This document shows positions 30,482 to 62,596 of a DNA stretch of 64,000 bases, piece after piece. This DNA comes from a virus (taxonomy: Duplodnaviria > Heunggongvirae > Uroviricota > Caudoviricetes), in IMG/VR virus record IMGVR_UViG_3300032030_000013, one strand, 5' to 3'. The notes beneath the pieces are model-generated. The model saw only the letters and a program-made list of their open reading frames with translations. It ran no database searches and was not told where the DNA came from. Position numbers and translations under genes: made by a program. How positions within the stretch are numbered: position 1 is the stretch's first letter; each line of letters begins with the position of its first letter.

Positions 30482-30631
30482 ATGAAATTAACTTGCAAAA
30501 ACAACTGCAAATACTATATATCAGGCAAGCTCTTTAACAATTGTGCAAAAAATATAGTAGGTACAATTAGAGAAGACAGTACTCCTTGCTACCAAATACA
30601 ATTTAGTTTAAAAGAAAATGAAATCATTTAA
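30482..30631 (+). CDS. Small 4-Cys protein (49 aa)
   Basis: Hand-translated MKLTCKNNCKYYISGKLFNNCAKNIVGTIREDSTPCYQIQFSLKENEII. Confidence 0.4.
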   Translation: MKLTCKNNCKYYISGKLFNNCAKNIVGTIREDSTPCYQIQFSLKENEII

Positions 30632-31124
30632 ACAATACATTCTTGAAGCTGAAGATGATGAATTAGACATGGATATGGATACTAGTGGAGATGAAGATAA
30701 TTCAGAAGACTCAAATAATTTAGAAGATAAAGATGATTCAGAAGATAAAGATGATTCAGAAGATTCAGACAAAAAGAAATCAACACAACGTGGAAATATT
30801 AAATTTGTTATCTGGGAAGAACCTGAAAAGAAGGTATCTTGGTTAAAAGATAACAATAAATATCAAAAGATAGAATATAAACATGAAGATAAGAAAAAGA
30901 ATATATTCATTGATTTCTTATTAGGTTTTGATAAAGAACAAAATACATGGAAATTATGGGTAGGTAAAATTGGTGCAGTAAACTATGATGATGATCCATA
31001 TTGTGATTTTGAAACTGAATCATTTGCTACTGCTATTGTTAAAGCATTAGATAAAGTAGAAGAATTTATTAAGAATGTAGAAGATGAACCTGAAAATTGG
31101 ATTCAATATTACAAAGATATATAA
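30618..31124 (+). CDS. Acidic protein with CTS-like leader (putative virion protein)
   Basis: MKSFKQYILE followed by a D/E/S-rich tract and a globular domain. Confidence 0.65.
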   Translation: MKSFKQYILEAEDDELDMDMDTSGDEDNSEDSNNLEDKDDSEDKDDSEDSDKKKSTQRGNIKFVIWEEPEKKVSWLKDNNKYQKIEYKHEDKKKNIFIDFLLGFDKEQNTWKLWVGKIGAVNYDDDPYCDFETESFATAIVKALDKVEEFIKNVEDEPENWIQYYKDI

Positions 31125-31145: not shown

Positions 31146-32408
31146 ATGAAAAAATTAGGTAGTTTTTTAACTGAATATGTTTCTTCAAAAAATAATGTAA
31201 ATGAAGAAAAAACTCCAGATATTAAGCAAATACAAGGTAAAGAACCAGATACTTATGGAGACTGTGATGTAGACTGGGCCATTGATGAACCTGTAGATAA
31301 TGAAGCTTCTGAAGGTGTTGATAAGAAAGAACTTAGTAAGAATATGAAACGTCTTCTTATGAAGTTTAAAGCTAAGGAAGATTTCTTTATTCTTGGTGAA
31401 GCAGGATGGGGTAAGACAACAATTATTAAGCAGACTGCTAAAAAGTTCAAGAGATCTATTGTAACAGTTTATTTGGATAAAGCTGAAAAGGAAGACTTAG
31501 GTGGTATTCCTGTTCCAGTTAAAGGTAAAGATGGTTCTGCTGTACAGGATAAAGCTATGCCAACATGGGCAAAGGTTATGATGGAAAATCCTGACAAGCA
31601 ATTCTTATTGTTCTTTGATGAAATGAATCAAGCAGATCCAGGTATTCAAAATGCTCTTATGCCTATTGTACTTGAACATGTAATATGTGGACATAAGTTT
31701 AAGAATTTTATTGTAGGTGCTGCTGGTAACTACGAATCTGAAAATGATGCAGTAAGTGAAATGTCAGTTCCTCTTAAGTCACGTTTCAAACCAATTATTG
31801 TTTGGGAAACTGGAGGTGATTCATGGAGAGATGCATTCAAATATTTACATAAGAATTGGGATGAAAAGTTAAGTAAAGATTTAGTAGATAAATTTGAAGA
31901 AAATGCAGAATTATTTAATAACCCTCGTGAATTAGAACATAAAGTACTTAAATTCTTATATGAACTTAAACAAGATGGTGATTATGATGAATTTGATGCA
32001 GAAGACTATTTAGACCGTCTTGAAGGATTGGTTAAAGAAGATTTAACTAGAACTCAAGAAAAGAATGTTAAGGAACTTGCTGATGATATATTTGGATTTA
32101 TGAATAATAAAGGAGATAAAGAAGAAAAGAAATCAGTTGGAAGAAGTTCACGTAAAGATATGAATATGGTTGATGAAAATATTAAGACTGCTATTAAACA
32201 AGGTATGAAATTTGGATATATTGAACAGGAAGGCGTTAAGTATGGTATATCTGAAGAAAATATTTCAGCAATTGTAGATCAAGATGAATGTAATGGGGAA
32301 ATGCTTAACAGAATCATTAGTAAATTTAAGAATGATGGTATAGAATTTAAGTTTAAGAAAAACGAAGAATGGAAAAAGAAAGGATATAAAGATCCTGAAG
32401 AAGACTAA
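31146..32408 (+). CDS. MoxR-like AAA+ ATPase with CTS-like leader
   Basis: GEAGWGKT, EDLGGIP, LFFDEMNQA, AAGN, and PLKSRF motifs; starts MKKLGSFLTE. Confidence 0.8.
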   Translation: MKKLGSFLTEYVSSKNNVNEEKTPDIKQIQGKEPDTYGDCDVDWAIDEPVDNEASEGVDKKELSKNMKRLLMKFKAKEDFFILGEAGWGKTTIIKQTAKKFKRSIVTVYLDKAEKEDLGGIPVPVKGKDGSAVQDKAMPTWAKVMMENPDKQFLLFFDEMNQADPGIQNALMPIVLEHVICGHKFKNFIVGAAGNYESENDAVSEMSVPLKSRFKPIIVWETGGDSWRDAFKYLHKNWDEKLSKDLVDKFEENAELFNNPRELEHKVLKFLYELKQDGDYDEFDAEDYLDRLEGLVKEDLTRTQEKNVKELADDIFGFMNNKGDKEEKKSVGRSSRKDMNMVDENIKTAIKQGMKFGYIEQEGVKYGISEENISAIVDQDECNGEMLNRIISKFKNDGIEFKFKKNEEWKKKGYKDPEED

Positions 32409-44485: not shown

Positions 44486-45667
44486 TTAGCCAATTTGTTT
44501 TTTAACATAATCTAAATCAACAGTAAATTCAGTTACTTCTTCTGACGGCATATTAAACATTGCTTTATTCATTATGTTTTCCATTGTTCCGCGAAGACCA
44601 CGAGCACCTAGTTTGTTTTCCATAGTCTTATCAACAATATAATCTAAAGCATCTTGTGTGAAGTCTAACTTTATATTATCTAAATTGAATATTCGTTTAT
44701 ATTGTTTGATTAATGCATTCTTAGGTTCTGTCAATATCTTAATTAATGAATCTCTGTCTAATTCATCAGTATATGTAATGATTGGCAATCGCCCAATGAT
44801 TTCAGGAATAAGTCCAAAAGATTTCAAATCAAGCGGGGTTATCTTTGCCATATAGTCTTCATCCTTCATCGTATGATCTGTATCTGAATTGAATCCGATT
44901 ACTTGTTTATTGCATCTTTGCTTAATTTTGTTTTCAATGCCTACGAATGCTCCACCACATATGAACAATATATTCTTTGTGTTGATTTTTACAAGCGGCG
45001 TATCTGGGTGCTTACGACCTCCTTTTGGCGGAATAGATACAATTGATCCTTCAAGTAATTTAAGTAATCCTTGTTGAACACCTTCACCTGATACATCACG
45101 CGTTATACTTGCATTATCGCCTTTACGGGCAATTTTATCTATCTCATCAATAAATACAATTCCACGTTCTGTTTTTTCAACATCATAATCAGATGCTTGA
45201 TAAAGATTAACCAATAATGATTCAACATCCTCGCCAACGTATCCTGATTCTGTCAATACTGTAGCATCTCCGATGCAAAATGGAACATCAAGCATTTTAG
45301 CAATAGTTCTTGCTATCATCGTTTTGCCCGTTCCTGTTGCTCCTAATATCAAGATATTAGATTTCTCAATTTCTACATCATCTTCTATTTCTGTATTGAT
45401 TCTCTTATAATGATTATATACAGCAACTGCAACACGTTCTTTAACTCTGTCTTGTCCTATGATATATTGATCTAAGAATTCTTTAATTTCTTTAGGCTTA
45501 GGAATTCCTTCCATAGTCTTATCATTTACTTTTGATTCATATTTCTCTAGTTCAGCATTACATCTCTTTAAGCATTCTGGACAAATATGACCCGCATTAC
45601 CCGCAAGTAATATACTACTATCTTCAAAACTTTTACCGCAAAAACTACAATAATATTGTTGTTCCAT
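44486..45667 (-). CDS. clpX: ClpX ATPase
   Basis: CSFCG..CPEC Zn finger, GATGTGKT, ESGYVGEDVE, DEIDKI, RDVSGEGVQQ, IGF loop, GARGLR. Confidence 0.95.
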   Translation of the reverse strand: MEQQYYCSFCGKSFEDSSILLAGNAGHICPECLKRCNAELEKYESKVNDKTMEGIPKPKEIKEFLDQYIIGQDRVKERVAVAVYNHYKRINTEIEDDVEIEKSNILILGATGTGKTMIARTIAKMLDVPFCIGDATVLTESGYVGEDVESLLVNLYQASDYDVEKTERGIVFIDEIDKIARKGDNASITRDVSGEGVQQGLLKLLEGSIVSIPPKGGRKHPDTPLVKINTKNILFICGGAFVGIENKIKQRCNKQVIGFNSDTDHTMKDEDYMAKITPLDLKSFGLIPEIIGRLPIITYTDELDRDSLIKILTEPKNALIKQYKRIFNLDNIKLDFTQDALDYIVDKTMENKLGARGLRGTMENIMNKAMFNMPSEEVTEFTVDLDYVKKQIG

Positions 45668-46927: not shown

Positions 46928-48037
46928 TTAGAATCCTATTTTATTTTTATGCGTTTTTGAATAATCATTTTCATTCTCATTATAATAGATGTCTGCTAAT
47001 GTCATATCTTTATTTTCATTAGGTAATAATTTATTAACTTTATCTTTTGAAAGTTTCTTAAATTCATATTTAAGTGATAAACGTCCTTTTCTTAATAATG
47101 CTCGGTCCACCTTGGACAACGAATCATTGAATGTACAGATGAATTTTGTCTTTAATACATCTCCAATGATTCCATCTGTTATATTCAATAAAACTGGCAT
47201 AACTGGGTTATATCCTGAAGATCTGTCTTTAAGAATCTTTTCACAATCTTCTAATATAAATACAGTATCCCAGTTATCTAAAAAATATGACATAAGTTTT
47301 TCTTGAGGAATACTACCTAATAAGCCGCCATCTATAAATATAAAGTTCTTATTAATATATTTCTTAATAAGATGCTTAATTAAAGAAGTCTTACCAGTTC
47401 CAGGTTCTCCATAAAATAGCATTAAATCAGGTCTTGTATCATCTGCAAGTATACTGCACATTCTATCATAAGGAAGATCATCATTATAATTCTTCTTAAT
47501 ATCAATATCTATATTAACATCATAATCAAACCAAGAAGTATATAATGTGTTTGTTCCTTCCATTATAGATGCAATGCCAAATTCTAATTTATTTTTATTA
47601 TCTAATGCTACACAATTTGGTCTAATAATTTTTTCAAATACTTCATCAATATGACCTTGTGCTACATACATATCATTATATGTATCTGAAGCATCTGCAT
47701 CAATGCTTGTTGTAAGATTAAACATAAAAGGAGCAGGATATTCTCCGCATATTAAAAATTCATTTGATGAATAATTGAATACTTCAAAATCATCTTGCTT
47801 ATCATTTTCTTTAATAAGATTTATCAAAAATTGACGTGTATCAATTCTTTTAGTAAACTTATATCTATCCAAAGCTAATTGAGAAGCTTTATATTCAAGA
47901 ATACCATCGTTATTATAAAAATAACGATAGCAAAATGGTAATTCGGTCTTAAAGATATTAATAAACATAGCTCCGAGATAATCATCACTATGACTATTGA
48001 ATATCTTAAACATGTCATAAATTTTTTGTTTATCCAT
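46928..48037 (-). CDS. AAA+ ATPase (BCS1/classical-clade-like)
   Basis: FYGEPGTGKT, ILEDCE, LLNITDG, TFN, D.ALLRKGRL motifs. Confidence 0.85.
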   Translation of the reverse strand: MDKQKIYDMFKIFNSHSDDYLGAMFINIFKTELPFCYRYFYNNDGILEYKASQLALDRYKFTKRIDTRQFLINLIKENDKQDDFEVFNYSSNEFLICGEYPAPFMFNLTTSIDADASDTYNDMYVAQGHIDEVFEKIIRPNCVALDNKNKLEFGIASIMEGTNTLYTSWFDYDVNIDIDIKKNYNDDLPYDRMCSILADDTRPDLMLFYGEPGTGKTSLIKHLIKKYINKNFIFIDGGLLGSIPQEKLMSYFLDNWDTVFILEDCEKILKDRSSGYNPVMPVLLNITDGIIGDVLKTKFICTFNDSLSKVDRALLRKGRLSLKYEFKKLSKDKVNKLLPNENKDMTLADIYYNENENDYSKTHKNKIGF

Positions 48038-49445: not shown

Positions 49446-50501
49446 ATGAGTAAGAAAGAAGTTTTAGAAAAAGAATTTGGAACAGATCATGAACTTGACT
49501 CAGTATTGAAAGAAATTAAAAAGCAATACGGAGATGGTGCCGTTATGCTTTTGGGTGAATCTGAAGTAATGGATATTGATACTATTCCTTCTGGTTCTAT
49601 TTCTTTGGACTGTGCTCTTGGAATTGGTGGTTATCCAAAAGGCCGTATAATAGAAATATATGGTCCTGAAAGTTGTGGTAAGACAACATTAGCAATACAT
49701 GCAGTTGCTGAAGCTCAGAAACTTGGTTTGAAAGCTGCTTATATAGATGCTGAAAATGCTTTTGATAGAGATTATGCTGCAAACCTTGGAGTTAATGTTG
49801 ATCAATTATTATTTGCACAACCCGACTGTGGAGAAGACTGTTTGGAAATTGCAACAAAATTAATATCATCAGGTAAGATTGGAATATTAGTTATAGATTC
49901 TGTTGCGGCATTGACTCCTCGTGCAGAATTAGAAGGTGCTATGGGAGATGCAAGAATTGGTCTTCAAGCTAGATTAATGTCTCAAGCATTACGTAAAATG
50001 GTTGGCATTATTAAGAAATCAAACTGTTGCTGTATATTCATTAATCAGATAAGAGAAAAGATTGGCGTATTATTTGGCAACCCAGAAACTACTACTGGTG
50101 GTAATGCTTTAAAATTCTATGCATCAATAAGATTAGAAGTTCGTAAATCAACACAGGTTAAAGACGGAGATGAAGCAATTGCTAATCTTACAAAAGTCAA
50201 GGTTGTTAAGAATAAATGCGCGCCTCCATTTAGAAAAGCAGAATTTGAAATTACTTATGGACATGGCATAAACAGGTTCTCAGAAATAATTGATAAGTCT
50301 ATAGAATTTGATATCATACATAAATCAGGTTCATGGTTCAGTTATGGAGAAGTAAAACTTGGTCAAGGACGCCAAGCAGTTATTGATTTATTAAATGATA
50401 ATCCTGAACTACTTGAAGAAATAGAACAGAAAGTAGTTGATCAATTAAAATCTAAACCTAAAGAAGGAGTAACTGAATTAGATGAAATATTAGGAGAATA
50501 A
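49446..50501 (+). CDS. recA: RecA recombinase (bacterial type)
   Basis: [36 protein letters not shown], and SGSW motifs. Confidence 0.97.
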
Positions 50502-50507
50502 TGATAT

Positions 50508-50894
50508 ATGAAACAAATAATAGAATTTATAAACGAAAAGCTAATCATCAATAAAAATATAAAAATAAGAAATTTAGATGATTGGACTATTGAGACTGCT
50601 CAAAACGGAGATATAGTTGAGATGAATGAAAATTTACTTTTTATATATAAAGGATTAAACAAAGATTTTCATGTAAATAATGCTTCTGATGATGCTATAG
50701 TATATCATGCAACATATATTTGTGATGAAAGAAAAAAATTAGATGTTGGTGTAGATACTGGTGTTGGTACTATTTCAGAAAGACTAGAAAGATATAAATT
50801 AGCTTCAGAAGAAAAATGCGACGAATTCATGGAAGCATTAAAGAAAGCAGGTTATAAATGGGATGATAATAAATTAAAAATTGTTAAGATATGA
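50508..50894 (+). CDS. CTS-array member 1 (payload resembles Bacteroidota-phage small domain)
   Basis: MKQIIEFINE-KLIINKNIKI; W.I..A..GD..A..E....F...L..AGY.WD. Confidence 0.7.
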   Translation: MKQIIEFINEKLIINKNIKIRNLDDWTIETAQNGDIVEMNENLLFIYKGLNKDFHVNNASDDAIVYHATYICDERKKLDVGVDTGVGTISERLERYKLASEEKCDEFMEALKKAGYKWDDNKLKIVKI

Positions 50895-51352
50895 AAGACT
50901 TAAAAACTTCTATATTAGAGAAATTAGTTATTAACAAAAATACAAAAATTAGAAATACTTTTGTTGATACAATTTTAAGGTTTATATATTCTGAACCTGA
51001 AGATGCTGAAGATGCTGAAGTTAAAGCAATAGCAAATTGGGTTAAAGAAGAAAATGTTGAACATCTTATTATATTAAGTACAATAGATGTATTAGAAAAA
51101 TACGGATTAATTGATCCTGATAATGATTATTTAGAAAAAGATCTTCGTAAAGATTTTGAAAATAATAGTATAGAAATTATATTAGATAAAACAGAATTTA
51201 TAAAGTTCATTAAAGATAATGGTGATGAAATATATAAAGATGAATTATATAAAGACAAATATGATCGTACAGGAATATATTCAAATAATGAACTTAATTT
51301 ATTAACATATGATATTAAAAATATTGGAATTATATTTTTTATAAACAAATAA
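50891..51352 (+). CDS. CTS-array member 2
   Basis: MKDLKTSILE-KLVINKNTKI. Confidence 0.7.
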   Translation: MKDLKTSILEKLVINKNTKIRNTFVDTILRFIYSEPEDAEDAEVKAIANWVKEENVEHLIILSTIDVLEKYGLIDPDNDYLEKDLRKDFENNSIEIILDKTEFIKFIKDNGDEIYKDELYKDKYDRTGIYSNNELNLLTYDIKNIGIIFFINK

Positions 51353-51361
51353 TAAATTGCT

Positions 51362-51832
51362 ATGAAGAACCTAAAAGACATCATATCAGAAAAACTAATT
51401 ATTAATCATCATTTAAATATAAAAGAAAAAGAATTTACTGATGAAGAACTTCATAATGATTATGATGAAGTTTCTGGAGCATATACAAAAGCTGAAAAGG
51501 AACCATTCAAAGATAAATATGGAGTCAATTCAAATAAAATTCGTGATATACAATTAGTCATATTGGATCATCTTAGGGAGAACCGTCAAAAAAAGAAAAA
51601 ATTTACTGTAGATGACTATAAAGATTTCATAAGATTAGAACCACCAGAAAGATATGAAAAATTTGCTGAACTACTTGATAATGAACCAAAGGAATTTATA
51701 AAATTCTTATTAAAAATATATGAAGGCATAATAAAGATTGATCATATAAATATATGGAATCCAAGATCAATTGCTGATAAATCAAAAGTTAAACGTTTAC
51801 AAAATTTACAAAAATATCTTAATATAAAATGA
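51362..51832 (+). CDS. CTS-array member 3
   Basis: MKNLKDIISE-KLIINHHLNI. Confidence 0.7.
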   Translation: MKNLKDIISEKLIINHHLNIKEKEFTDEELHNDYDEVSGAYTKAEKEPFKDKYGVNSNKIRDIQLVILDHLRENRQKKKKFTVDDYKDFIRLEPPERYEKFAELLDNEPKEFIKFLLKIYEGIIKIDHINIWNPRSIADKSKVKRLQNLQKYLNIK

Positions 51833-52661
51833 AGAACTTAAAAGATATACTAAAAGAAAATTTAGAAATAAATGAAAAACTAATTATTAATAAAAATGCT
51901 AAATTCCGTAAATATAATTATCGTCCTAAAAATTTAAATGAATTAAAGAAAACAATTAAAAAACTTATTGAAGAACGTGGTAATGATGCAGACCTTAATG
52001 ATATAGATGTATCTAATGTAACATCATTAAATGAATTGTTTTATAATTCTAAATTTAATGGAGATATATCAATGTGGGATGTAAGTCATGTTAAAACAAT
52101 GTATATGACATTTATGAATTCTAATTTTACAGGAGAAAATGGAGATATATCAAAGTGGGATGTAAGCCATGTAAATAATATGGGATATATATTTCATGAT
52201 TCTAGATTTAATGGTGATATATCAAAATGGAATGTTAGCAAAGTTAAATTTATGGCAAATATGTTTTCAGGATCATCTTTTACTGGTGACATATCAAAAT
52301 GGGACGTTAGTAATGTAACAAGCATGTGGAATATGTTTAGTAATTCTATATTTAATGGTGATATATCTAATTGGAATGTCAGCAAAGTTGAAAATATGAC
52401 AAAAATGTTTGAAAATTCTAATTTTAAAAATGATATATCAAAATGGGATGTTAGTAATGTTGAACATATGGACGATATATTTAGTGGATGTCCTTTAGAA
52501 AAAAATCCACCAAAATGGTATAAAAACATATGAAGGCATAATAAAGCACAATCATATAAATATTTGGAATCCAAAATCAATTGCTGATAAATCGAAAGTT
52601 AAACGTTTGCAAAATTTACAAAAAATATCTTGGTATAAAATGAAAGACATAAAAGATATCA
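51711..52661. repeat. ~140-bp imperfect direct repeat (51711-51850 and 52521-52661) flanking member 4
   Basis: TGAAGGCATAATAAAG...ATCAATTGCTGATAAATC.AAAGTTAAACGTTT.CAAAATTTACAAAAA occurs twice; the second copy has one extra A. Confidence 0.9.
51829..52533 (+). CDS. CTS-array member 4: DUF285/BspA-like repeat protein
   Basis: Leader plus ~24-aa W(D/N)VS.V..M..MF..S.FNGDISK repeats. Confidence 0.8.
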   Translation: MKNLKDILKENLEINEKLIINKNAKFRKYNYRPKNLNELKKTIKKLIEERGNDADLNDIDVSNVTSLNELFYNSKFNGDISMWDVSHVKTMYMTFMNSNFTGENGDISKWDVSHVNNMGYIFHDSRFNGDISKWNVSKVKFMANMFSGSSFTGDISKWDVSNVTSMWNMFSNSIFNGDISNWNVSKVENMTKMFENSNFKNDISKWDVSNVEHMDDIFSGCPLEKNPPKWYKNI

Positions 52662-52978
52662 TAATAGAAAAACTAATCATTAATAAGAACACAAAAATCA
52701 ATAAACAGACTAATTTATCTGATGATGAACAGAATAAAATAATAGATGAGTTATGTATGTATTTTCAAGCAAGTGGTACTTTTGATGGCAATGAATATGA
52801 TACACGGTTACAGATAGTTGATAAATTCTTTCATAAAGATATCGCAGAATATTTCAGAAGATTGTTCTTATGGGAAGACATGGCAGAATTTATGAATGTT
52901 GATAAAAAAGATTTAATAGATTATGTCAAAAACTATAAAGAAGAATTATACGAACAAATAAAAGATTTTGTATTATGA
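52640..52978 (+). CDS. CTS-array member 5 (start revised to ATG 52640)
   Basis: MKDIKDIIIE-KLIINKNTKI. Confidence 0.7.
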   Translation: MKDIKDIIIEKLIINKNTKINKQTNLSDDEQNKIIDELCMYFQASGTFDGNEYDTRLQIVDKFFHKDIAEYFRRLFLWEDMAEFMNVDKKDLIDYVKNYKEELYEQIKDFVL

Positions 52979-53454
52979 AAAACCTTAAAGATATTATAAT
53001 AGAAAAACTTATTATCAATAAGAACACTAAAATAGATAAGTATCATTATCATCCAAAGACTAATAAAGAACTAATACAAACTGTTTATAGATTAATAAAT
53101 AAACGTGGTTATACTGCAGATCTTAATGATATAGATACTTCAGAAATAACTGATATGTCTGCAGTATTTAGTGATAATGATGTAAATAAAAGTTTTGATG
53201 GTGATATATCTGAATGGGATGTTAGTAATGTTACCAATATGAGAGAAATGTTTTTAGGCTCAAAATTTACTGGAGAAAATGGAGACGTATCTAATTGGGA
53301 TGTAAGAAATGTTGAAAATATGTTTCAAATGTTTGCTTATTCACATTTTAATGGAGATATATCAAAATGGGATGTAAGTAATGTAAAAAACATGAAATAT
53401 ATGTTTCATGGTGGAGAATTAGAAGATAATCCACCTAAATGGTATAAAAAATAA
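52975..53454 (+). CDS. CTS-array member 6: DUF285/BspA-like repeat protein
   Basis: MKNLKDIIIE-KLIINKNTKI; same repeats and NPPKWYK end as member 4. Confidence 0.8.
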   Translation: MKNLKDIIIEKLIINKNTKIDKYHYHPKTNKELIQTVYRLINKRGYTADLNDIDTSEITDMSAVFSDNDVNKSFDGDISEWDVSNVTNMREMFLGSKFTGENGDVSNWDVRNVENMFQMFAYSHFNGDISKWDVSNVKNMKYMFHGGELEDNPPKWYKK

Positions 53455-53469
53455 AAAATTTAACATAAT

Positions 53470-53865
53470 ATGAAATCATTAAAACATATATTATTAGAAA
53501 AATTTGTAATCAATAAGAATACTAAAATTAATAAACATATCGATGATGATAATATAATTATAGAAATTGATGGTAAAGAATATAATTATATGATAGGAGA
53601 CAAACTACAAATAGTAGATCATGCTGAATCTCCAGAAGAAGCTATAGTAATGATTAAAAGAGATTCTGATGAAGGTGATAGGTTTCATTGGTTAAAACCA
53701 TTAGATAATGGAAACTATACTGCATCTTTAGATTATTATTGGGTCAAATATGCTAAGGATGGTTATTTGTTAAAATCTAAAAGTGGTATAAGATATAAAG
53801 AATCAAATATTATATCTACATATAATGATCAAAATATGATATTATGTAAAGTTGAAAAAATATAA
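53470..53865 (+). CDS. CTS-array member 7
   Basis: MKSLKHILLE-KFVINKNTKI. Confidence 0.7.
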   Translation: MKSLKHILLEKFVINKNTKINKHIDDDNIIIEIDGKEYNYMIGDKLQIVDHAESPEEAIVMIKRDSDEGDRFHWLKPLDNGNYTASLDYYWVKYAKDGYLLKSKSGIRYKESNIISTYNDQNMILCKVEKI

Positions 53866-53876
53866 TAAATAATATA

Positions 53877-54344
53877 ATGAAAAAAATCAAATCATTTATA
53901 TTAGAAAAACTAATTATTAACAAGGATATCAAAATTAATAATTCAATGTCTCCAGAACTTAAAAGTATCTGGGATCATTTTGAAATTGATAAACTATATG
54001 AAATTGATAAAGGAAGACTTCAGAAGGAACCTTATATAACTGATGAAGAAGGAAAGGAATTAAAAGAAAAACTTGAAAATTTTTTATCAAAGAATAAATG
54101 GGATTCTAATAAGTTTAAATATTTTATTCTTGCAGGTCATAAGTTTAAAGATAAGAAGATAGCTAAAGACTTTAAGAAGAATAATCTATCTGTTATGAAC
54201 AGAAACAGTTTTATTAGTGATGCAGAAGATAAAGAAACAATATTCAAAAAAAATAGTTTACGTTTTGATGCAAGTGCTTCAGAAAAACTATTAGGTATGT
54301 ATGGACCTTTTGGTGGATCAAAAGTAGTCGAATTTAATGAATAG
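53877..54344 (+). CDS. CTS-array member 8
   Basis: MKKIKSFILE-KLIINKDIKI. Confidence 0.7.
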   Translation: MKKIKSFILEKLIINKDIKINNSMSPELKSIWDHFEIDKLYEIDKGRLQKEPYITDEEGKELKEKLENFLSKNKWDSNKFKYFILAGHKFKDKKIAKDFKKNNLSVMNRNSFISDAEDKETIFKKNSLRFDASASEKLLGMYGPFGGSKVVEFNE

Positions 54345-54373: not shown

Positions 54374-54772
54374 ATGTATTTTAAGATTAAATTAAATAGA
54401 AACATATCCATAAATGATAAAGAAAAACGTGTCATAGAAACTTATTTTACTGATGCGTTACATTTTGCAGATGCAGGCTACAAAATAATACAGATTGTTG
54501 GCACAGATGCTGAAATAGAAGATGTATGTATGATGAAGAATTTTAAGCCTGCTGCAAATGAATATAAAGAAGGAACAAAAATATTTGCAGTCAAGGTTGC
54601 AGAAGATGTTCCTACTGAAGAAGGAACAATTAAGACAATCAAATATGCATTACCAGTTTTTGCAAAAAATTCTGATGAAGTTCATATGATTATGCGAGAC
54701 TATATTGCACAAGGATTTGATAATATGAGACTAACTACAATATCAGAAACAAAATGGATTTGGATAGAATAA
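54374..54772 (+). CDS. Hypothetical protein
   Basis: 132-aa ORF. Confidence 0.6.
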   Translation: MYFKIKLNRNISINDKEKRVIETYFTDALHFADAGYKIIQIVGTDAEIEDVCMMKNFKPAANEYKEGTKIFAVKVAEDVPTEEGTIKTIKYALPVFAKNSDEVHMIMRDYIAQGFDNMRLTTISETKWIWIE

Positions 54773-55306: not shown

Positions 55307-57394
55307 TTATTCAGTTGGATCTATAACAAAAGTATCTTCAACTGTTCCATTAGTTACTACGATTACATCTCCTGAACTAAATGTTGCAGCAGTAAATTCT
55401 AAAATATTATTAGTTGGTGTAAGTGTTTCTACAGGAACATCATTTTCACCAGTTGGATTTACATATAATGAGAATTGCTCTGTTGAATTTGTATAGCATT
55501 TGATAACTCTATCTGAAGTCTTTGTAAAATTCTTTTGACAGATATGTACAAATGGAGTTGGATTCCACCATGCTTTATAAATATAGAATGTATCTTTCTT
55601 TGTTTTATGATCTCTTTCAACCAATCCTTTGTTATTTAAGAATTTCAAATCATTATTATCAGTAACAGTTTCATCATCCAAACATACTTTATAACCTTCT
55701 TGTCTATTAGAAACAGCAATATCAAATAATTGCCATTGAGAAGTAAATAACAATTGTGGGAAATTCTTAATAGCTGCAATATGTCCTTCGTGTAACCACA
55801 TCATATATTCAATATCATGTCTTGGGTTATTTCCACGTGTCGTAGTTGACATATAACTTGTTGAGTGACATGTTGAAGAACCGCCGCATCCATATTCTGA
55901 ATATGCAGTTGGTGTAGTACCATTATTATTTATTCTTGTATTAAGACGGTTTGTTGGATTGTTTGAATTTTGATCTATGTACCAACCTACATATATATTG
56001 TTTCCAACCCAATCAACAGTAGGATTATTAAATACTCCTAATCCGTTATCTGTTCCATGTGATACAGTATAGCCTACCCAAGCGCCTGGCATTAATGTTC
56101 TAATTTGTGTTCTATATCCTTCAATTTTTGATTTAACAAAATCTTTACCTTCAGTTGAATTTGTAACTGATGTATTAATTTCATTACCAACACCCCAGAA
56201 TAATATACATGGGTGATTATAATGTTGATTAACCATATCTTCAATTTCTTCACCTAGATGAGTCCAATATGCTTCTGGCATTGTTAATGTTGAAGAGTTT
56301 ACCCATTGTGCTTCAGTCTGTACAATAATACCTAATCTATCACAATAGTCATAAACTTGTTTTGGATGAGGGTAATGAGCAAGACGTAAGAAATTAGCAC
56401 CTAGTTCAGTTATGATATCAAAATCATTATTGATGTCTTCTACAGTCAATGCATTAGCTTTATTTGCTAAATCATGATGAGAACAAACACCTCTTAACAA
56501 ATATGGGCTGCCATTTAATAAGAAACCTGTATATGGATGTTCTGAATCATATCCTTCAATAGTTGCATCATCCCAAACATAATCAAAGTATCTTAATCCA
56601 TAAGGACGTTTCAACTGAAGATTAAGTTCTTCATTATAATATAATTCTAAAGTCACATCATAAAGGTGTGGATCTAATGTACCATTCCAAAGATGAGGGT
56701 TATCTATAGTAACTGTAAATGTAATATCACCTTTACCAAATTTTCTTTCTACATAACTAAATTCTTCATCATTGACTTTTAATACAACATCAGCATATGT
56801 TGGAATTGTTGTTTTAACTGTCATAATTGCTTGTGCATCAGTTACTGTAGATGTAATATGGAATCCATCATATCCATATTCAGGCGATGGCAATACTGGG
56901 CTAGTCAATAATTTAACTTTACCTAATGTTGCATTACGATTGAAGTCACCAGCTGCGGGTGGAAGATTATTACCTTCATTATTTTTGATTTTAACAGTTA
57001 AATTATTTGTGCCAACTTGAATATAATCAGTTATATCTACAAAGAATGCATTATATCCACCCCAGTGTTTAGTTACCAATGTTTCTCCAATATATACTTC
57101 TGCAGAATGATCTGCATGGTCAAACCAAAGATAAGTTGGTTGTAACTTATGAATAGTAATTGTTGATGTAAATGTAAAATAACCTGTTGCATAGTTTCCA
57201 GAATGTCCATCAATTCTATTAACAGAATATGGTAATTCTATATTTTCATTAACATCAGTAGTGTTCTTTTTTGCATAAACCCATGGACCTACTGGTTTAG
57301 AAGATGCAAATAATGGTGAAACATTATAAATTGATTCTGCAGCGACTAATGGACTAGCAGGAACACCTGATTTATTTATAACTATTGTTTTCAT
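55307..57394 (-). CDS. Glycoside hydrolase family 2 (beta-galactosidase/glucuronidase-like)
   Basis: GGYNAF, GLR.F, LRGV..HHD, GANFLRLAHYP, acid/base WGVGNE, nucleophile SEYG, KGLV..D...KKD.FY. Confidence 0.9.
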   Translation of the reverse strand: MKTIVINKSGVPASPLVAAESIYNVSPLFASSKPVGPWVYAKKNTTDVNENIELPYSVNRIDGHSGNYATGYFTFTSTITIHKLQPTYLWFDHADHSAEVYIGETLVTKHWGGYNAFFVDITDYIQVGTNNLTVKIKNNEGNNLPPAAGDFNRNATLGKVKLLTSPVLPSPEYGYDGFHITSTVTDAQAIMTVKTTIPTYADVVLKVNDEEFSYVERKFGKGDITFTVTIDNPHLWNGTLDPHLYDVTLELYYNEELNLQLKRPYGLRYFDYVWDDATIEGYDSEHPYTGFLLNGSPYLLRGVCSHHDLANKANALTVEDINNDFDIITELGANFLRLAHYPHPKQVYDYCDRLGIIVQTEAQWVNSSTLTMPEAYWTHLGEEIEDMVNQHYNHPCILFWGVGNEINTSVTNSTEGKDFVKSKIEGYRTQIRTLMPGAWVGYTVSHGTDNGLGVFNNPTVDWVGNNIYVGWYIDQNSNNPTNRLNTRINNNGTTPTAYSEYGCGGSSTCHSTSYMSTTTRGNNPRHDIEYMMWLHEGHIAAIKNFPQLLFTSQWQLFDIAVSNRQEGYKVCLDDETVTDNNDLKFLNNKGLVERDHKTKKDTFYIYKAWWNPTPFVHICQKNFTKTSDRVIKCYTNSTEQFSLYVNPTGENDVPVETLTPTNNILEFTAATFSSGDVIVVTNGTVEDTFVIDPTE

Positions 57395-57439
57395 TTATTA
57401 TAATTAATCTATTTATTATATATTCATTTATTTATATTT

Positions 57440-58978
57440 TTATATATCATAATATTCTTTATAATTTTTAATGAGCCAAGTTGAAGGTATGCCAGTAGCA
57501 CTATTACCACCAGCTTTAGGCCATGTTGCATTAACATGTTTAATAAATACACCAGTTGGAAACACTACATTAATACTTCCCAATGTATTATCCCAAAGAA
57601 AAGCAAATAAACTATCATTTATTATATTTTGCACTAAACATGTAATATAATTAAGAGAAACACAACCATGAAATAAACCGTGATAACAATGATATACTAA
57701 TGTTTCTGCTGGCAATTCAGGATGTGTTGTCATTGAAACACAGTCATCAAACATATAATAATAACATTCTGTTGATAAAGTTGTAGCAGGTAATATTTTA
57801 GGAGATTTTGTTAATAAATGACTATGTGCAAATGTAGCTCGATAACAATCTGTAGTTAATGTTGTTGCTGGTAATATTAAATATTCTGCAGAAACAATAT
57901 TTGATCCGTTAAATACTTGAGATAATGCATGTTCTTCCGTTAATGTAGTTTGTCCAATAAAATTATCTCCATAAATAAGACTCATTATGTTACCTTTAGC
58001 ATTATATGTTGCAGTACCACCAGTAAAAGCAGAATATTTTGTATTATTCCATGCATAACGAGAATTATTACCTTTTATTAATACTTTATCTCCAGTTAGT
58101 ACATTAATTTCAGTACCTTCAGATGTAGCTGTGATATCTGTCCATGTAGTTCCATTATCTTTACTGTATGATATAGTTAATACACTATATATTTCATTAT
58201 TACCTGTACCTTTCCATAATATTGTGCCATCAGTTAATACATCAAATTGAAGATATTCATTTTCCCATGGATATCCATATTCATCATTAATAATCCACCC
58301 AGATGGAATATGAGATGCTTTATTAGTATTATTCCATGTTCCTAAATAATTGAGTTCAAATGTACCAGAACCAGCAACACCAGATATCCAGTTTTGATTA
58401 ACATATTCTGATATATCTGAAACATTATAACATATGATATGATTTAATGAAGTACATCCATAGAACATATCTTTATAGCAGTCTTCAGATAAAGTTTCTG
58501 CTCTTAATATTGGGGAATCTGTTAATGAAGAACATCCATAGAACATCCCTTCATAACAGCCAACTTCAGTGTGTTTAGGCATTATCAAATTACTTGCATC
58601 TATTAATGTAGTACAATTCTTAAATAAATCCTTGAATGAATAAGGTCTCATATAGTTATGATTAATTAATGCAAGAAGCCTGCCAGATACTTCAAAATCT
58701 CCAGATACAGTAAATGTACCTATACCATTATTCATAAATGGTATCAAACTTCCTTTGAATACTATGCTATTACCTGAGCTTAATTCTATTTCTGTATTTG
58801 CTTCATAAAAACTCCAATATGAATTAGTACCATTATTATATTCAAGATTATTTGAAAATGATAATGTTAAATTTTCTAAAGCAGTTATCTTAAATACTTC
58901 TATACTATCTAATCCTTCATAATGAATACTACCTAAATTAGATGAAAATAATATATCAGTTTTTGTTATTTTTCCCAT
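57440..58978 (-). CDS. Tail fibre/receptor-binding-like protein with BspA-type LRRs
   Basis: LPATTL..CY..MF..C repeats; first ~230 aa paralogous to 59018..62596. Confidence 0.7.
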   Translation of the reverse strand: MGKITKTDILFSSNLGSIHYEGLDSIEVFKITALENLTLSFSNNLEYNNGTNSYWSFYEANTEIELSSGNSIVFKGSLIPFMNNGIGTFTVSGDFEVSGRLLALINHNYMRPYSFKDLFKNCTTLIDASNLIMPKHTEVGCYEGMFYGCSSLTDSPILRAETLSEDCYKDMFYGCTSLNHIICYNVSDISEYVNQNWISGVAGSGTFELNYLGTWNNTNKASHIPSGWIINDEYGYPWENEYLQFDVLTDGTILWKGTGNNEIYSVLTISYSKDNGTTWTDITATSEGTEINVLTGDKVLIKGNNSRYAWNNTKYSAFTGGTATYNAKGNIMSLIYGDNFIGQTTLTEEHALSQVFNGSNIVSAEYLILPATTLTTDCYRATFAHSHLLTKSPKILPATTLSTECYYYMFDDCVSMTTHPELPAETLVYHCYHGLFHGCVSLNYITCLVQNIINDSLFAFLWDNTLGSINVVFPTGVFIKHVNATWPKAGGNSATGIPSTWLIKNYKEYYDI

Positions 58979-59017
58979 TTTATATAAATTATTTAATATT
59001 TTGTATATTAATATTTA

Positions 59018-62000
59018 TTATTCTGTATAATCTTCTACAGTCCAACCAGATGGTATACCAGAAGTTCCAGTAGACCAAGATTTACCGGATGCTTTCTTAA
59101 ATGTACCAGTAGATGATGTATTTGCTAACCAATTTTTACAAGCATCAGTATTATCTGTCTTAAGACATGTAACTTCAATTAAATTACCATTACCTCTAAA
59201 CATTTCTTCATAACAACCAGATGCTGTAGTTGCACAACGTAATATAGGAGATTTTGTCATCTTAGGTGTTGTTATATTAGAATTTCTACTCATACAGAAC
59301 ATACGTTTACAACAGTTTTGTGCTAAAGTAGTAAAGTTAAGTTCTGGTGCAACTTCAAGATTAATACATCCTTCAAACATTGAAGAACAACATTCATTTT
59401 CAGCACAAGTTGTTGCTTGTATTTGTGGGGCAGACTTAAGATTTGTACATCCACGGAACATACCATTATAAGAATTATAATATAATGTTGATGCAGAAAG
59501 ATATAATTTATTTGCATCAATTAATGTTGTCGTTCCATAGAATAATCCTACAAAATGGTTATTTGTACTTGAATTTAATTCAGTAGTATTTACAAAATTA
59601 TCTCCATTCAATAATGACATTATATTACCGTATGCATTAAATGTTTTAGATCCATTAAATCTATAATATGTGTCCCATGCAGTTCCTAATCTTAAATTAT
59701 TACCTTTGAATATTATCTTATCACCAGTATTAATAGTTGCAAAATTAGTAGTATCACTTATTGTTAAGTCTGTCCATGTTGTGCCATCATCAGTTGAATA
59801 AGATAAGTTTATATTACTTGGCTTATTTGTTTTAATTATATTAATTGTATTATTATCTTCTAATGATTCAATTGTGAAATATTGTTGACTATAATCAATG
59901 AATGTAAATGTTTCACTTACTGTATTACTTGTTGTACCATCTAATTCAGAATATGCTTCAATAGTTGTAGTTGCATTAATTATTATCGGTTCTGTATATT
60001 GAATAAAACTACCTGTATTATTTAATCTATAATATATTGTACTATTTAGGGTTAAACAAGATAATGTAATAGTTGTTCCATAATTAAATTCAATTGTTGG
60101 ATCTAATAATGATGTTGGAGCATAAACACAATAACTATAAACCTTAGGACTAGTCACATCATTCAATTCTGCATATGTTCTAACTGCAGTATCACTTGAT
60201 ATTGATATTACACCAGTGTATGCAATATAATTACCTGTATTATTTAATTGATAATATATTGTCGCACCTGATGTCTGACAATCTAATGTTATTTCTTGAC
60301 CATCAAATGATATTGTTGGTTTTAATACACCTTCATCAACTATTGTCCATCCACTTGGCACTACTCCACTCCAATCAATATTTATATCTTTTACTAATGT
60401 TCCTGTTGCAGCAACATCGCTTAACATATAACCTATCCAATCAGTTGCACCATTGTCAACTTCATTATACATGCATTTAACATAAGTTAAATACGAACAA
60501 TATCTAAACATTCCAACATAACACTGATTATATACAGTAGTTGCTAATAAATCTGGTGCAGTTGTTAATGATGAACATTTTCCAAACATATATGAATAAC
60601 AACTATTTGCCAACGTTGTTGCTGGTAATACAGGAGCTGTTGTTAATGATGTACATCCATAAAACATATTTGCATAACAACTATTTGCCAACGATGTTGC
60701 AGGCAATGTAGGTGCGGTTGCTAATGAAGTACAATTATAAAACATATTATAATAGCAACTATCTGCTAATGTCATTGCAGGCAATGCAGGAGCAGTTGTT
60801 AATGAAGTACATCCATAAAACATACTTCTATAGCAATTAGTTCCTAATGTTGTCGCAGGTAATGCAGGTGGAGTTACTAATGAAGTACATCCTTCAAACA
60901 TACTTCTATAACATTCTGATGATGCTGTTGTAGCAGACAATACAGGAGCAGATGTTATAGATGTACATCCTTTAAACATATCATAATAACATGCTGCTCC
61001 TAATGTTGTGGCTGGTAATGCAGGAGTGGTTGTTAAAGAAATACATCCATTAAACATTTCATAATAACATTCTGTTGATAATGATGTTGCTGTCAATGAA
61101 CATGAAATATTTGTTAATGATGTACAACCTAAGAACATAGCTCTACAACATCTTACAGCTGATGATGAAATAGTAAATGTTGATATTGACGTTAATGAAG
61201 TACATCCTTGTAACATACTTTGATAACAACCTTCTTTCATCGTAGCTAAAGGTAATTCTGTAACTGTTGTTAATGAAGTACACCCATAAAACATTTGAAA
61301 ATAACAATTTTTAGCCAAACTTGTCGAATATAAATTTGGTGTTTTTGTAATAGATACTGCGTTTTTAAACATCGCTTTATAACATGATTCTGCTAATGTT
61401 GTTGCAGGAAGCTCAGGAACTTCGTCAAGATATTGTGTATCACTAAATAGTGATTGATAACATGAAAGTGTAAGAGTTAAAACAGGAAGCACTAATTTTT
61501 TAGCAGATACAACATTTGTTCCTTGAAATAAATTACGGAAAACCTGCGCATTATTATTAAATGATGTTGATTCAGCAAAATCATCACCACTTATAAGTGA
61601 CATTATATTACCTTCAACATTAAATTTGGCAGTACCACCAAATTTAGAACTTTTGTCAGTATTATTTGCAAAATACCCGTATGCTGTATTGTTTCCTTTA
61701 AATAAAACTTTATCTCCAGCTACAACAGTTATTTCAGCACCTTCTAAAGATGATGTTATATCTGTCCAAGTTTCACCATCATCTTTACTATATGATATAG
61801 TTTTTGATGTAGTATCACTTGTTGTGTTTTCCCATAATATTGTACCAGGTGTTAATATTCTAAATGTTAAATATTTATTAGTCAAAACACCAGTTGTTAT
61901 TTCCCAGTTTTCTGGTATATGAGATGCTTTATTTGTATCATTCCAATTTCCTTCAGAATCTATTTCAAAAACACCAGCTGATGCAACTCCATAAACCCAG

Positions 62001-62596
62001 TTTAAATTAACATACTGAGATATATCTGAAATGTTTTTACATGTTATTTCTCTAAGAGAAGAACATCCATAAAACATATCTGTATAACAATTATTTTGTA
62101 ATGTTTGTACAGATAATGTTGGTGATTCCTCTATTGATGTACATCCATAAAACATTCCTTCATAACAGTTTTGTGTAACATAATCTGGTAATGTTATATT
62201 GCTTACATCAGTTAATGTAGTACAATTTCTAAATAAATTCTTAAATGAATAATTTTGCATTGTACCATCATTAATTAATGATAATATATTACCTGATGCT
62301 GTAAAATTGCCCGATACTGTAAATGTACCTATACCATTAGTTGTTGGAATTAACTTACCTTTTAATGTAACAGTTTCTCCATTTTCAATTGATAATGGAG
62401 TATTTGCTTTTAATGGTTTCCATAATATTGATACATTATTTCTATACTCAAGATCATTTGAAAATCTAAGTGTTAAATCTTCTTGAGCAGTTATAGTTAA
62501 ACCATTATATATTAAAGATGGATCATTAAAAGTTACTTTACCTATATTATTAAATACATATGCAGCATTGGCAGAAATAAGTAATGATTTTCCCAT
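59018..62596 (-). CDS. Large tail fibre/adhesin-like protein with 26-aa LRRs and two Fn3-associated domains
   Basis: About ten 26-aa (78-nt) LPATTL..CY..MFYGCTSLTTAP units; two P.I.F..IT L.C.T..ATIYY.LN domains. Confidence 0.75.
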   Translation of the reverse strand: MGKSLLISANAAYVFNNIGKVTFNDPSLIYNGLTITAQEDLTLRFSNDLEYRNNVSILWKPLKANTPLSIENGETVTLKGKLIPTTNGIGTFTVSGNFTASGNILSLINDGTMQNYSFKNLFRNCTTLTDVSNITLPDYVTQNCYEGMFYGCTSIEESPTLSVQTLQNNCYTDMFYGCSSLREITCKNISDISQYVNLNWVYGVASAGVFEIDSEGNWNDTNKASHIPENWEITTGVLTNKYLTFRILTPGTILWENTTSDTTSKTISYSKDDGETWTDITSSLEGAEITVVAGDKVLFKGNNTAYGYFANNTDKSSKFGGTAKFNVEGNIMSLISGDDFAESTSFNNNAQVFRNLFQGTNVVSAKKLVLPVLTLTLSCYQSLFSDTQYLDEVPELPATTLAESCYKAMFKNAVSITKTPNLYSTSLAKNCYFQMFYGCTSLTTVTELPLATMKEGCYQSMLQGCTSLTSISTFTISSSAVRCCRAMFLGCTSLTNISCSLTATSLSTECYYEMFNGCISLTTTPALPATTLGAACYYDMFKGCTSITSAPVLSATTASSECYRSMFEGCTSLVTPPALPATTLGTNCYRSMFYGCTSLTTAPALPAMTLADSCYYNMFYNCTSLATAPTLPATSLANSCYANMFYGCTSLTTAPVLPATTLANSCYSYMFGKCSSLTTAPDLLATTVYNQCYVGMFRYCSYLTYVKCMYNEVDNGATDWIGYMLSDVAATGTLVKDINIDWSGVVPSGWTIVDEGVLKPTISFDGQEITLDCQTSGATIYYQLNNTGNYIAYTGVISISSDTAVRTYAELNDVTSPKVYSYCVYAPTSLLDPTIEFNYGTTITLSCLTLNSTIYYRLNNTGSFIQYTEPIIINATTTIEAYSELDGTTSNTVSETFTFIDYSQQYFTIESLEDNNTINIIKTNKPSNINLSYSTDDGTTWTDLTISDTTNFATINTGDKIIFKGNNLRLGTAWDTYYRFNGSKTFNAYGNIMSLLNGDNFVNTTELNSSTNNHFVGLFYGTTTLIDANKLYLSASTLYYNSYNGMFRGCTNLKSAPQIQATTCAENECCSSMFEGCINLEVAPELNFTTLAQNCCKRMFCMSRNSNITTPKMTKSPILRCATTASGCYEEMFRGNGNLIEVTCLKTDNTDACKNWLANTSSTGTFKKASGKSWSTGTSGIPSGWTVEDYTE

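Follow-up and report, generated by a model that had tools for sequence, protein, structure and literature searches.

The internal proteins of T-even phages are highly diverse, and all that is common to them is a capsid-targeting sequence, abbreviated CTS (PMC3012670). The CTS loads internal or foreign proteins onto the scaffolding core of the T4 prohead (PMC3012670, PMC8442874). The internal proteins of T4 are highly basic (PMC8442874), but T4 also loads non-basic foreign proteins through the CTS, so a basic payload is no strict requirement (PMC3012670). Proteases of the T4 family cut after glutamate, as in Alt at ITE-6 and LTE-619, often at several sites in a propeptide (PMC5694885). Here we analyse eight genes of an uncultured rumen or gut megaphage whose mostly unrelated products begin with a shared 20-residue leader, the first half of which resembles the T4 tag. 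They lie in a 64-kb stretch of DNA (IMG/VR record IMGVR_UViG_3300032030_000013), called the window below, directly 3' of a recA gene.

Other described systems resemble this locus in part. Among the propeptide-bearing ejection and inner-body proteins of the phiKZ-like giant phages (SPN3US gp53 and gp54, phiKZ gp93), diverged paralogues have identical short N-termini with at least one x-x-E cleavage motif, and many head proteins, about 50, are carried and ejected (PMC5694885, PMC7411985). Unlike what we describe here, those phages use an S80 protease that cuts at (S/A/G)-x-E, their motif is A-x-E or S-x-E, their propeptides are much longer, and they have no decapeptide common to dozens of unrelated genes. 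In phage P1, some 30 N-terminal residues of DarB suffice to route a foreign protein into the capsid (PMC9024508); DarB, however, has no sequence likeness to our leader, is one protein and not a genome-wide tag, and belongs to another head assembly system. Finally, expansions of DUF285 (BspA-like, PARCEL) proteins, two of which occur at our locus, recur in large viral genomes such as that of Aureococcus virus AaV, with 38 DUF285 proteins, and Vibrio jumbo phages, but no common N-terminal tag is described there.

The eight open reading frames (ORFs 1-8, cassettes 1-8 in Table 1) occupy positions 50508-54344 on the plus strand and encode 112 to 234 residues. A preliminary description of this DNA had listed them with their opening decapeptides, and all are present as quoted; one start needs correction, that of cassette 5, which is the ATG at 52640 and not the upstream TTG at 52607. 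The first half of the leader reads M-K-x-(L/I)-x-x-x-(I/L)-x-E in every ORF, and glutamate is residue 10 in eight of eight, as had been stated. The decapeptide pattern is thus seen eight times, where N-terminal composition predicts 0.04 per window. A second motif, K(L/F)(I/V)INKNxKI or a near variant, had been said to follow Glu10 in all eight. It does so directly in seven; in cassette 4 it is interrupted by a six-residue insertion (ILKENLEIN-EKLIINKNAKF) that partly duplicates the EKLxIN unit. When the eight leaders are aligned, six positions are invariant: M1, K2, E10, K11, I14 and N15. In cassette 4 the residue directly after Glu10 is asparagine. In a six-frame scan of the window the second motif turns up at these eight starts and nowhere else.

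Is it the peptide that is conserved, or the nucleic acid that encodes it? Where two leaders have the same residue, their codons differ in 134 of 337 pairs (40%), compared with 43% in random draws from the codon usage of the window. The 40 nt upstream of the leaders are not conserved, except where the tail of ORF3 has recently been duplicated. Synonymous sites are therefore saturated while six positions stay invariant across unrelated bodies, which means that the peptide itself is under selection. These findings rule out recent duplication and gene conversion as the cause, and likewise a signal in RNA or DNA. The leader is conserved as a peptide, not as nucleic acid.

Structure predictions with AlphaFold2 (AF2) set the leader apart from what follows. 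The model of ORF6 has a mean predicted local distance difference test score (pLDDT) of 91.7, with a confident body from about residue 21; the leader forms a separate helix of low confidence at residues 4-16, and residues 15-19 score below 50. The model of ORF5, made with 17 orthologues, is poor (pLDDT 49.8) and likewise starts with a helix and coil. These N-termini suggest that the 20 residues of the leader form one amphipathic helix and a linker before unrelated bodies.

The leader compares closely with the T4 tag. In T4 itself the gp21 prohead protease removes the CTS from IPII, IPIII and IPI. In the T4 record (NC_000866) both IPII and IPIII begin MKTYQEFIAE, followed by alanine, which bears out the sequence given in the preliminary description. 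In both systems an N-terminal decapeptide starts with M-K, carries a hydrophobic pair at positions 7 and 8 and has glutamate at position 10 (PMC8442874), and in both it is attached to otherwise unrelated small proteins. All eight cassettes keep M1, K2, (I/L)8 and E10 of the T4-type tag; position 7 is isoleucine in five, phenylalanine in two and serine in one, with phenylalanine in T4. We think it moderately probable that the leader is an extended variant of a T4-type capsid-targeting, or head-loading, leader. The system would then work like the T4 CTS and its variable internal-protein loci, with which it shares the tag pattern and, in its relatives, the head-assembly gene families.

It also differs from T4 in scale, in its 20-residue form linked to DUF285, in Lys11 and in its mostly acidic payloads. 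The T4 record has three matching ORFs (ipII, ipIII and 61.1), whereas the relatives considered here have 31 to about 80. The array adds a second conserved decapeptide, KLIINKNTKI, which puts lysine at residue 11 where T4 has alanine, and its payloads are mostly acidic where those of T4 are basic. It is probably co-transcribed with recA, and its cleavage and packaging are putative. As a side observation, the third T4 match is uncharacterised: besides ipII and ipIII, only ORF 61.1 fits M-K-x4-(F/Y)-I-x-E (NC_000866 18966-19130; L083:667-831). It encodes 54 residues starting MKTFKEFIKE and adjoins the primase gene.

How widely is the tag used? Genome-wide counts come from two relatives whose genomes are near complete, G1 (376 kb) and G2 (410 kb), and from the cultured jumbo phage PAU (JQ362498). 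Of the 553 ORFs of G1, 31 open with the decapeptide pattern, as do 75 of the 487 ORFs of G2, where about 0.2 would be expected; the consensus of the pattern in these relatives is M-K-x-(I/L)-x-x-(Y/F)-I-x-E. The tag occurs among them on kinase-, HAD-phosphatase- and ATPase-like enzymes as well. Since it is genome-wide in relatives, the recA array is one locus among many. A hidden Markov model of the leader built from the eight sequences scores at most 21.5 bits even on G2. Our literature search brought up no account of huge phages with expanded CTS-like tags.

The tags of the relatives fall into two classes. After the plain tag, 46 of 63 cases have S, A, G or T, which matches T4. An extended tag continues with K-(L/F)-x-(I/L/V)-x-K and further residues. 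G2 has 43 ORFs of the extended class, their wording being EKFRLSKDNL; 39 of them encode DUF285 proteins, and nearly all 44 DUF285 ORFs of that genome carry the extended tag. G1 lacks DUF285 genes and the extended class alike. The extension has a genome-specific wording: KLIINKNTKI in the window, KLK(I/V)xSK(S/T)KI in contigs L009 and L010, KLN(V/I)K in L018 and KFRLSKDNL in G2. With synonymous sites saturated, such concerted rewording fits co-evolution with one shared partner per genome better than it fits gene conversion. KLIINKN had been put forward as perhaps an ejection or docking signal. It is not unique to the array but is a lineage-specific extension that marks the DUF285 expansion and is reworded in relatives, and nothing in our analysis shows it to be such a signal. 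An alignment of the leader with the interior of a DUF285 protein from a Vibrio jumbo phage was rejected as a spurious extension of the repeat match.

Tags are also found away from ORF starts. Longer ORFs (G2 72821-73924; G1 185907-186827 and 188014-189402) contain complete tags, methionine included, and look like fusions that keep the leader of the downstream gene; in one of them MKTINEYINEE lies around residue 357 of 462. Other proteins have double leaders (G2 139330-139908, 250947-251741 and 292831-293712; also P0044): a plain tag, MKKLNxYISEAER..., is followed about eight residues on by a second YITEKFRLSKDN unit. These double-leader proteins imply that an extended unit placed away from the N-terminus can work there, or can at least be retained.

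If the leader loads proteins into a T4-type head, the phages that carry it should have the matching assembly machinery. As in T4, the relatives encode a gp21-family protease and a gp23-family capsid protein. Both G1 and G2 have a Peptidase_S77 domain (PF03420, T4 gp21 type) at 46-47 bits (cut-off 27). It begins a protein of 537-565 residues whose gene is directly upstream of a Gp23-type capsid gene (PF07068, E 3e-29). In the long C-terminal region of the protease, a linker that is acidic and rich in lysine and a coiled coil are accompanied by tandem repeats of 12 residues, seven or eight in number, that read W-(I/V)-x-E-E-F-A-P-E-V-Q-N; each repeat holds an (I/V)-x-E motif. By its sequence the protein looks like a protease-scaffold fusion, as in herpesviruses. 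The capsid protein of the relatives has a conserved AIHEIHE-S at residues 38-41, and its nearest named relatives are those of PAU, of Tenacibaculum and Chryseobacterium phages and of Lak phages.

PAU belongs to the same capsid lineage; its capsid protein is 32% identical over 99% of the length. Twenty of its 296 ORFs start MKT(L/I)xxL(Y/F)E(S/A), and 15 of these are found at 100-121 kb, where the portal, protease and capsid genes are. Among them are genes to which the depositors gave the labels scaffolding and internal capsid protein. Several PAU tags add a second unit, KLNE(A/S), that resembles the EKLN and EKLEINE forms of this clade. In contrast to the system described here, PAU has a tag of nine residues, its tags are mainly inside the head-assembly cluster, and its single DUF285 protein is an untagged ORF of 1857 residues. 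Elsewhere than at ORF starts, the tag end L(Y/F)E(S/A) has only 11 occurrences in the PAU proteome, among them one near the portal C-terminus, two in the protease, close to either end, and another close to the C-terminus of gp155, an acidic coiled-coil protein. This recurrence is the pattern that a maturation-protease site would give, and the C-terminal LYE(S/A)-type motifs may be processing sites. We also note their context: (S/K)LYESIK(A/S)K stands at residue 562 of 584 in the portal and 235 of 246 in the protease (PAU 108296-114543), and a looser version, ELYEALK, stands at residue 211 of 248 in gp155.

Turning to the locus itself, we compared what lies between recA and the conserved gene that follows in related contigs of 116-442 kb. 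The number of cassettes in this interval varies from none (L006, L007 and L011) through one (L008 and L012), three (L018), four (L001 and L005, the latter with a RecA 95% identical) and four to six (L009 and L010) to the eight of the window. In the closer relatives, with RecA identity of at least about 78%, the DUF4494 gene comes next after recA or the array wherever this can be read, L018 excepted. From these comparisons the eight genes are probably swappable cassettes in a hot spot between recA and DUF4494. Recombination has left a trace. The only gap in the array larger than 15 nt, 106 nt between cassettes 4 and 5, repeats the end of ORF3: tblastn places the ORF3 body at 52520-52624 with 86% identity, and in a three-way alignment of the gap, the ORF3 end and L005, nearly all columns are invariant over about 90 nt. 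In L005, cassette 3 directly abuts cassette 5. The scar and this contact together indicate a recent gain or loss of cassette 4, brought about by recombination where the gene end meets the leader. With megablast the locus had no match among GenBank phages.

The bodies behind the leaders had been called unrelated apart from two DUF285 proteins, and this is confirmed: with leaders removed, ORF4 and ORF6 match by BLASTP at E 2e-42 and all other pairs have E > 0.03. Both reach the DUF285 family (PF03382, cut-off 25), ORF4 with 224.6 bits (E 2.4e-67) and ORF6 with 100.7 bits (E 5.8e-29). Several bodies can be followed into relatives, where the leader behaves independently. That of cassette 1 recurs in L001 and L005, L009 (two copies), L010 and G2, with the leader in each genome's own wording. 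The family of the cassette 3 body includes a 347-residue ORF with a short plain tag in G2 and an untagged 318-residue ORF in L006. Cassette 5 has 21 orthologues, some of which wear a leader with the insertion of the cassette 4 type; in its more distant pairs the bodies are 72% identical against 57% for the leaders. The leaders of the 24 orthologues of cassette 8 are worded in at least five ways, among them a duplicated form, EKLEIN-EKLIIN, and one with a double tag, and one orthologue, in a 468-kb contig, stands outside the recA array, about 4.3 kb off and past topoisomerase genes. Cassette 4 is absent from L001 and L005. Cassettes 2 and 7 have no homologue in G1, G2, PAU or the recA loci of the relatives, and cassette 2 is absent even from L005. 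Unrelated bodies, untagged and short-tag homologues, swapped wordings and a separate AF2 helix all show the leader to be a portable addition.

The preliminary description had proposed a plug-in locus with a T4-CTS-like leader, a reading that is partly supported. Variable cassette number, the scar, swapped or absent leaders and conservation at the protein level all speak for it, as do the T4-type protease and capsid genes of the relatives and the PAU tag on head-module genes. What finds no support is a singular locus, an ejection or docking role of KLIINKN and an anti-defence role of the payloads.

What the payloads do is a different matter. Pfam and PHROGs assign no family to the six that are not DUF285 proteins. 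Atlas searches with a language model return only viral hypothetical proteins for the ORF1 body, no usable match for that of ORF7, and viral hypothetical proteins or no usable match for that of ORF8. Foldseek finds nothing in the PDB for the ORF6 model at E <= 0.001, just weak solenoid-type rows. If the leader is cut off, the mature forms would be 12-26 kDa. The suggestion that the payloads are anti-defence factors thus finds no support in sequence, language-model or fold searches, and with no function to assign to them it is a guess.

Expression bears on the question as well. The stop codon of recA is 6 nt from ORF1, and apart from the 106-nt gap the spacers within the array are -4 to 15 nt. 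Promoters of its own would find no space in the array, which is therefore probably transcribed together with recA. In G2, the protease, capsid, sheath, tube and tail-fibre genes have the motif TTATTTTTAAT 20-90 nt upstream; it is found before recA too, and at or just upstream of several extended-leader arrays. The form TTATTTTTAAT(T/A)A has 53 sites in G2 and precedes all recognisable virion genes, recA and several tagged arrays. A second motif, TTGAAT-N17-ACTATATT, has 46 sites, mostly before small genes, and just one tagged gene among them. The two look like two promoter classes. Their placement is compatible with co-expression of tagged arrays and virion genes, without proving it. The wording of TTATTTTTAAT is not conserved in the window.

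Several observations weigh against a head-loading role. The residue after Glu10 is lysine in seven leaders and asparagine in one, where a small residue would be expected; with lysine at residue 11, the extended leader may be cut elsewhere or left uncut. Payloads are not basic: six of the eight have isoelectric points of 4.6-6.5, acidic or neutral, and two are at about 9. The array is probably co-transcribed with recA, which is not a typical late structural gene, and the G2 motif TTATTTTTAAT also precedes endonuclease and ATPase genes and so is not virion-specific. The protease and capsid genes were seen in the relatives only. The scaffolding and internal capsid labels in PAU are depositor annotations whose basis is not stated, and a literature search found no virion proteomics or N-terminal mapping for the clade, PAU included.

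Could the leader serve some other purpose? It might be an address or docking helix that is never removed and that attaches its protein to another structure, either the virion exterior (capsid decoration, whiskers or tail) or a phage-made membrane scaffold. DUF285 or BspA-type proteins are usually surface adhesins, and the extended leader goes with nearly every DUF285 ORF of G2. This leader is a long helix with a hydrophobic face (residues 4-16) and has lysine and no small residue at position 11; its genome-specific wording would suit any single shared docking partner, and the payloads are mainly acidic. We nevertheless consider exterior docking unlikely. The kinase-, HAD-phosphatase- and ATPase-like enzymes that carry the tag would be odd surface decorations, the T4 match holds position by position, and in PAU the tags concentrate on head-core genes while their end motif recurs at the portal and protease C-termini, as for a protease site. 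These same PAU observations, together with recurrence of the end motif in the capsid propeptide, are left unexplained if the leader is an N-terminal degron or timing signal, read by a phage ClpX-like unfoldase, that limits the lifetime of early or middle proteins. A ClpX-like gene (zf-C4_ClpX, AAA_2 and ClpB_D2-small) does lie about 5 kb upstream of recA and occurs in relatives, G1 has a ClpP homologue (E 9e-27, 274307-274795), and probable co-transcription with recA would fit. G2, however, has the most tags (about 75) yet no ClpP match, and no link leads from the tag to known ClpX N-terminal motifs; we hold a degron to be very unlikely.

It is also conceivable that the leader has no targeting role and is the inherited N-terminus of one expanding family, or an AT-rich start that favours expression, spread by recombination. 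Its codons (for K, N, I, L and E) are AT-rich, the scar and the swapping of leaders show that recombination occurs at the leader, and in G2 the extended form is nearly confined to DUF285. Against this stand the saturated synonymous sites beside six invariant positions across unrelated bodies, a pattern at least about 200 times commoner at ORF starts than N-terminal composition predicts, and a concerted rewording per genome that neutral inheritance does not predict. We regard this explanation as quite unlikely. The last candidate is a DNA or RNA element, such as a recombination site, a translational operator or a promoter-proximal signal, with the peptide as by-product. Cassettes do recombine at or near the leader, but the pattern is explicable without an inverted or direct DNA repeat, and conservation does not reach into the 40 nt upstream apart from the duplicated ORF3 tail. 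As codon choice at conserved residues is indistinguishable from random, we rejected this candidate and give it hardly any credence.

How, then, might a T4-type head-loading leader work here? We propose that its first ten residues are this lineage's version of the capsid-targeting sequence, carried on a detachable amphipathic helix. The leader would dock its protein onto the scaffolding core of a T4-type prohead, and the protein would be enclosed as the gp23-type shell forms. The gp21-family (S77) prohead protease would probably then trim the leader after (I/L)-x-E, and the payload would leave the head with the DNA at infection. Docking, cleavage at E10, packaging, injection and the role of the payloads are what we infer from these comparisons. 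Residues 11-20 (KLIINKNTKI) would be a lineage-specific extension of the helix and a short flexible linker. This extension marks an expanded family of small DUF285 solenoids and the genes recombined with it, and its wording would co-evolve with one shared partner encoded in each genome. A more elaborate scheme is possible, although we find it doubtful: a two-tier loading code in which the plain tag loads enzymes and the extended leader loads a large library of small, quickly diversifying DUF285 solenoid binders and genes recombined with them, to be injected with the DNA against host defence proteins, the extension having co-evolved in wording with a receptor site on the protease-scaffold fusion.

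Table 1. Features of the array, its surroundings in the window and the protease genes of two relatives
Feature	Position	Strand	Remarks
recA/UvsX-like recombinase	49446..50501	+	left border of hot spot; first gene of apparent operon
Cassette 1	50508..50894	+	128 residues; leader MKQIIEFINEKLIINKNIKI; body without assigned function
Cassette 2	50891..51352	+	153 residues; acidic body without assigned function
Cassette 3	51362..51832	+	156 residues
Cassette 4	51829..52533	+	234 residues; DUF285 solenoid; leader with six-residue insertion
Recombination scar	52534..52639	+	near-identical copy of the 3' end of cassette 3
Cassette 5	52640..52978	+	112 residues; all-helical body without assigned function
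Cassette 6	52975..53454	+	159 residues; DUF285 solenoid
Cassette 7	53470..53865	+	131 residues; no family assigned
Cassette 8	53877..54344	+	155 residues; no family assigned
DUF4494 gene, untagged	54374..54772	+	conserved right border of hot spot; Pfam E 9e-6, just under cut-off
ORF with plain tag MKSFKQYILE, then A	30618..31124	+	very acidic body
AAA+ ATPase with tag-like N-terminus MKKLGSFLTE	31146..32408	+	
ClpX-like unfoldase and second AAA ATPase	44486-45667; 46928-48037	-	zinc-finger, AAA_2 and D2-small domains in L001 orthologue
S77 prohead protease with long C-terminal region	G2 82910-84607; G1 212552-214165		

Two neighbours of the array call for comment beyond the table. The identity of recA is supported by RecA_N, Rad51 and RecA_C Pfam matches in its L001 orthologue. 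At 55307-62596 of the window, on the minus strand, a GH2-type glycosidase of 695 residues follows two large fibre-like genes that match phrog_9915.

If the leader does load the head, the proteins that uncultured megaphages inject could be told directly from their sequence; there would be dozens per genome, among them enzymes and a diversified family of solenoid binders. Capsid targeting as known from T4 would then be old and widely expanded in distant T4-like phages of Bacteroidota, and no peculiarity of the T-even phages. The recA hot spot shows how such sets of putative cargo turn over among close relatives, and the extended leader offers a natural variant for the engineering of phage protein delivery. 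Because PAU is a cultured relative, the head-loading idea is directly testable.

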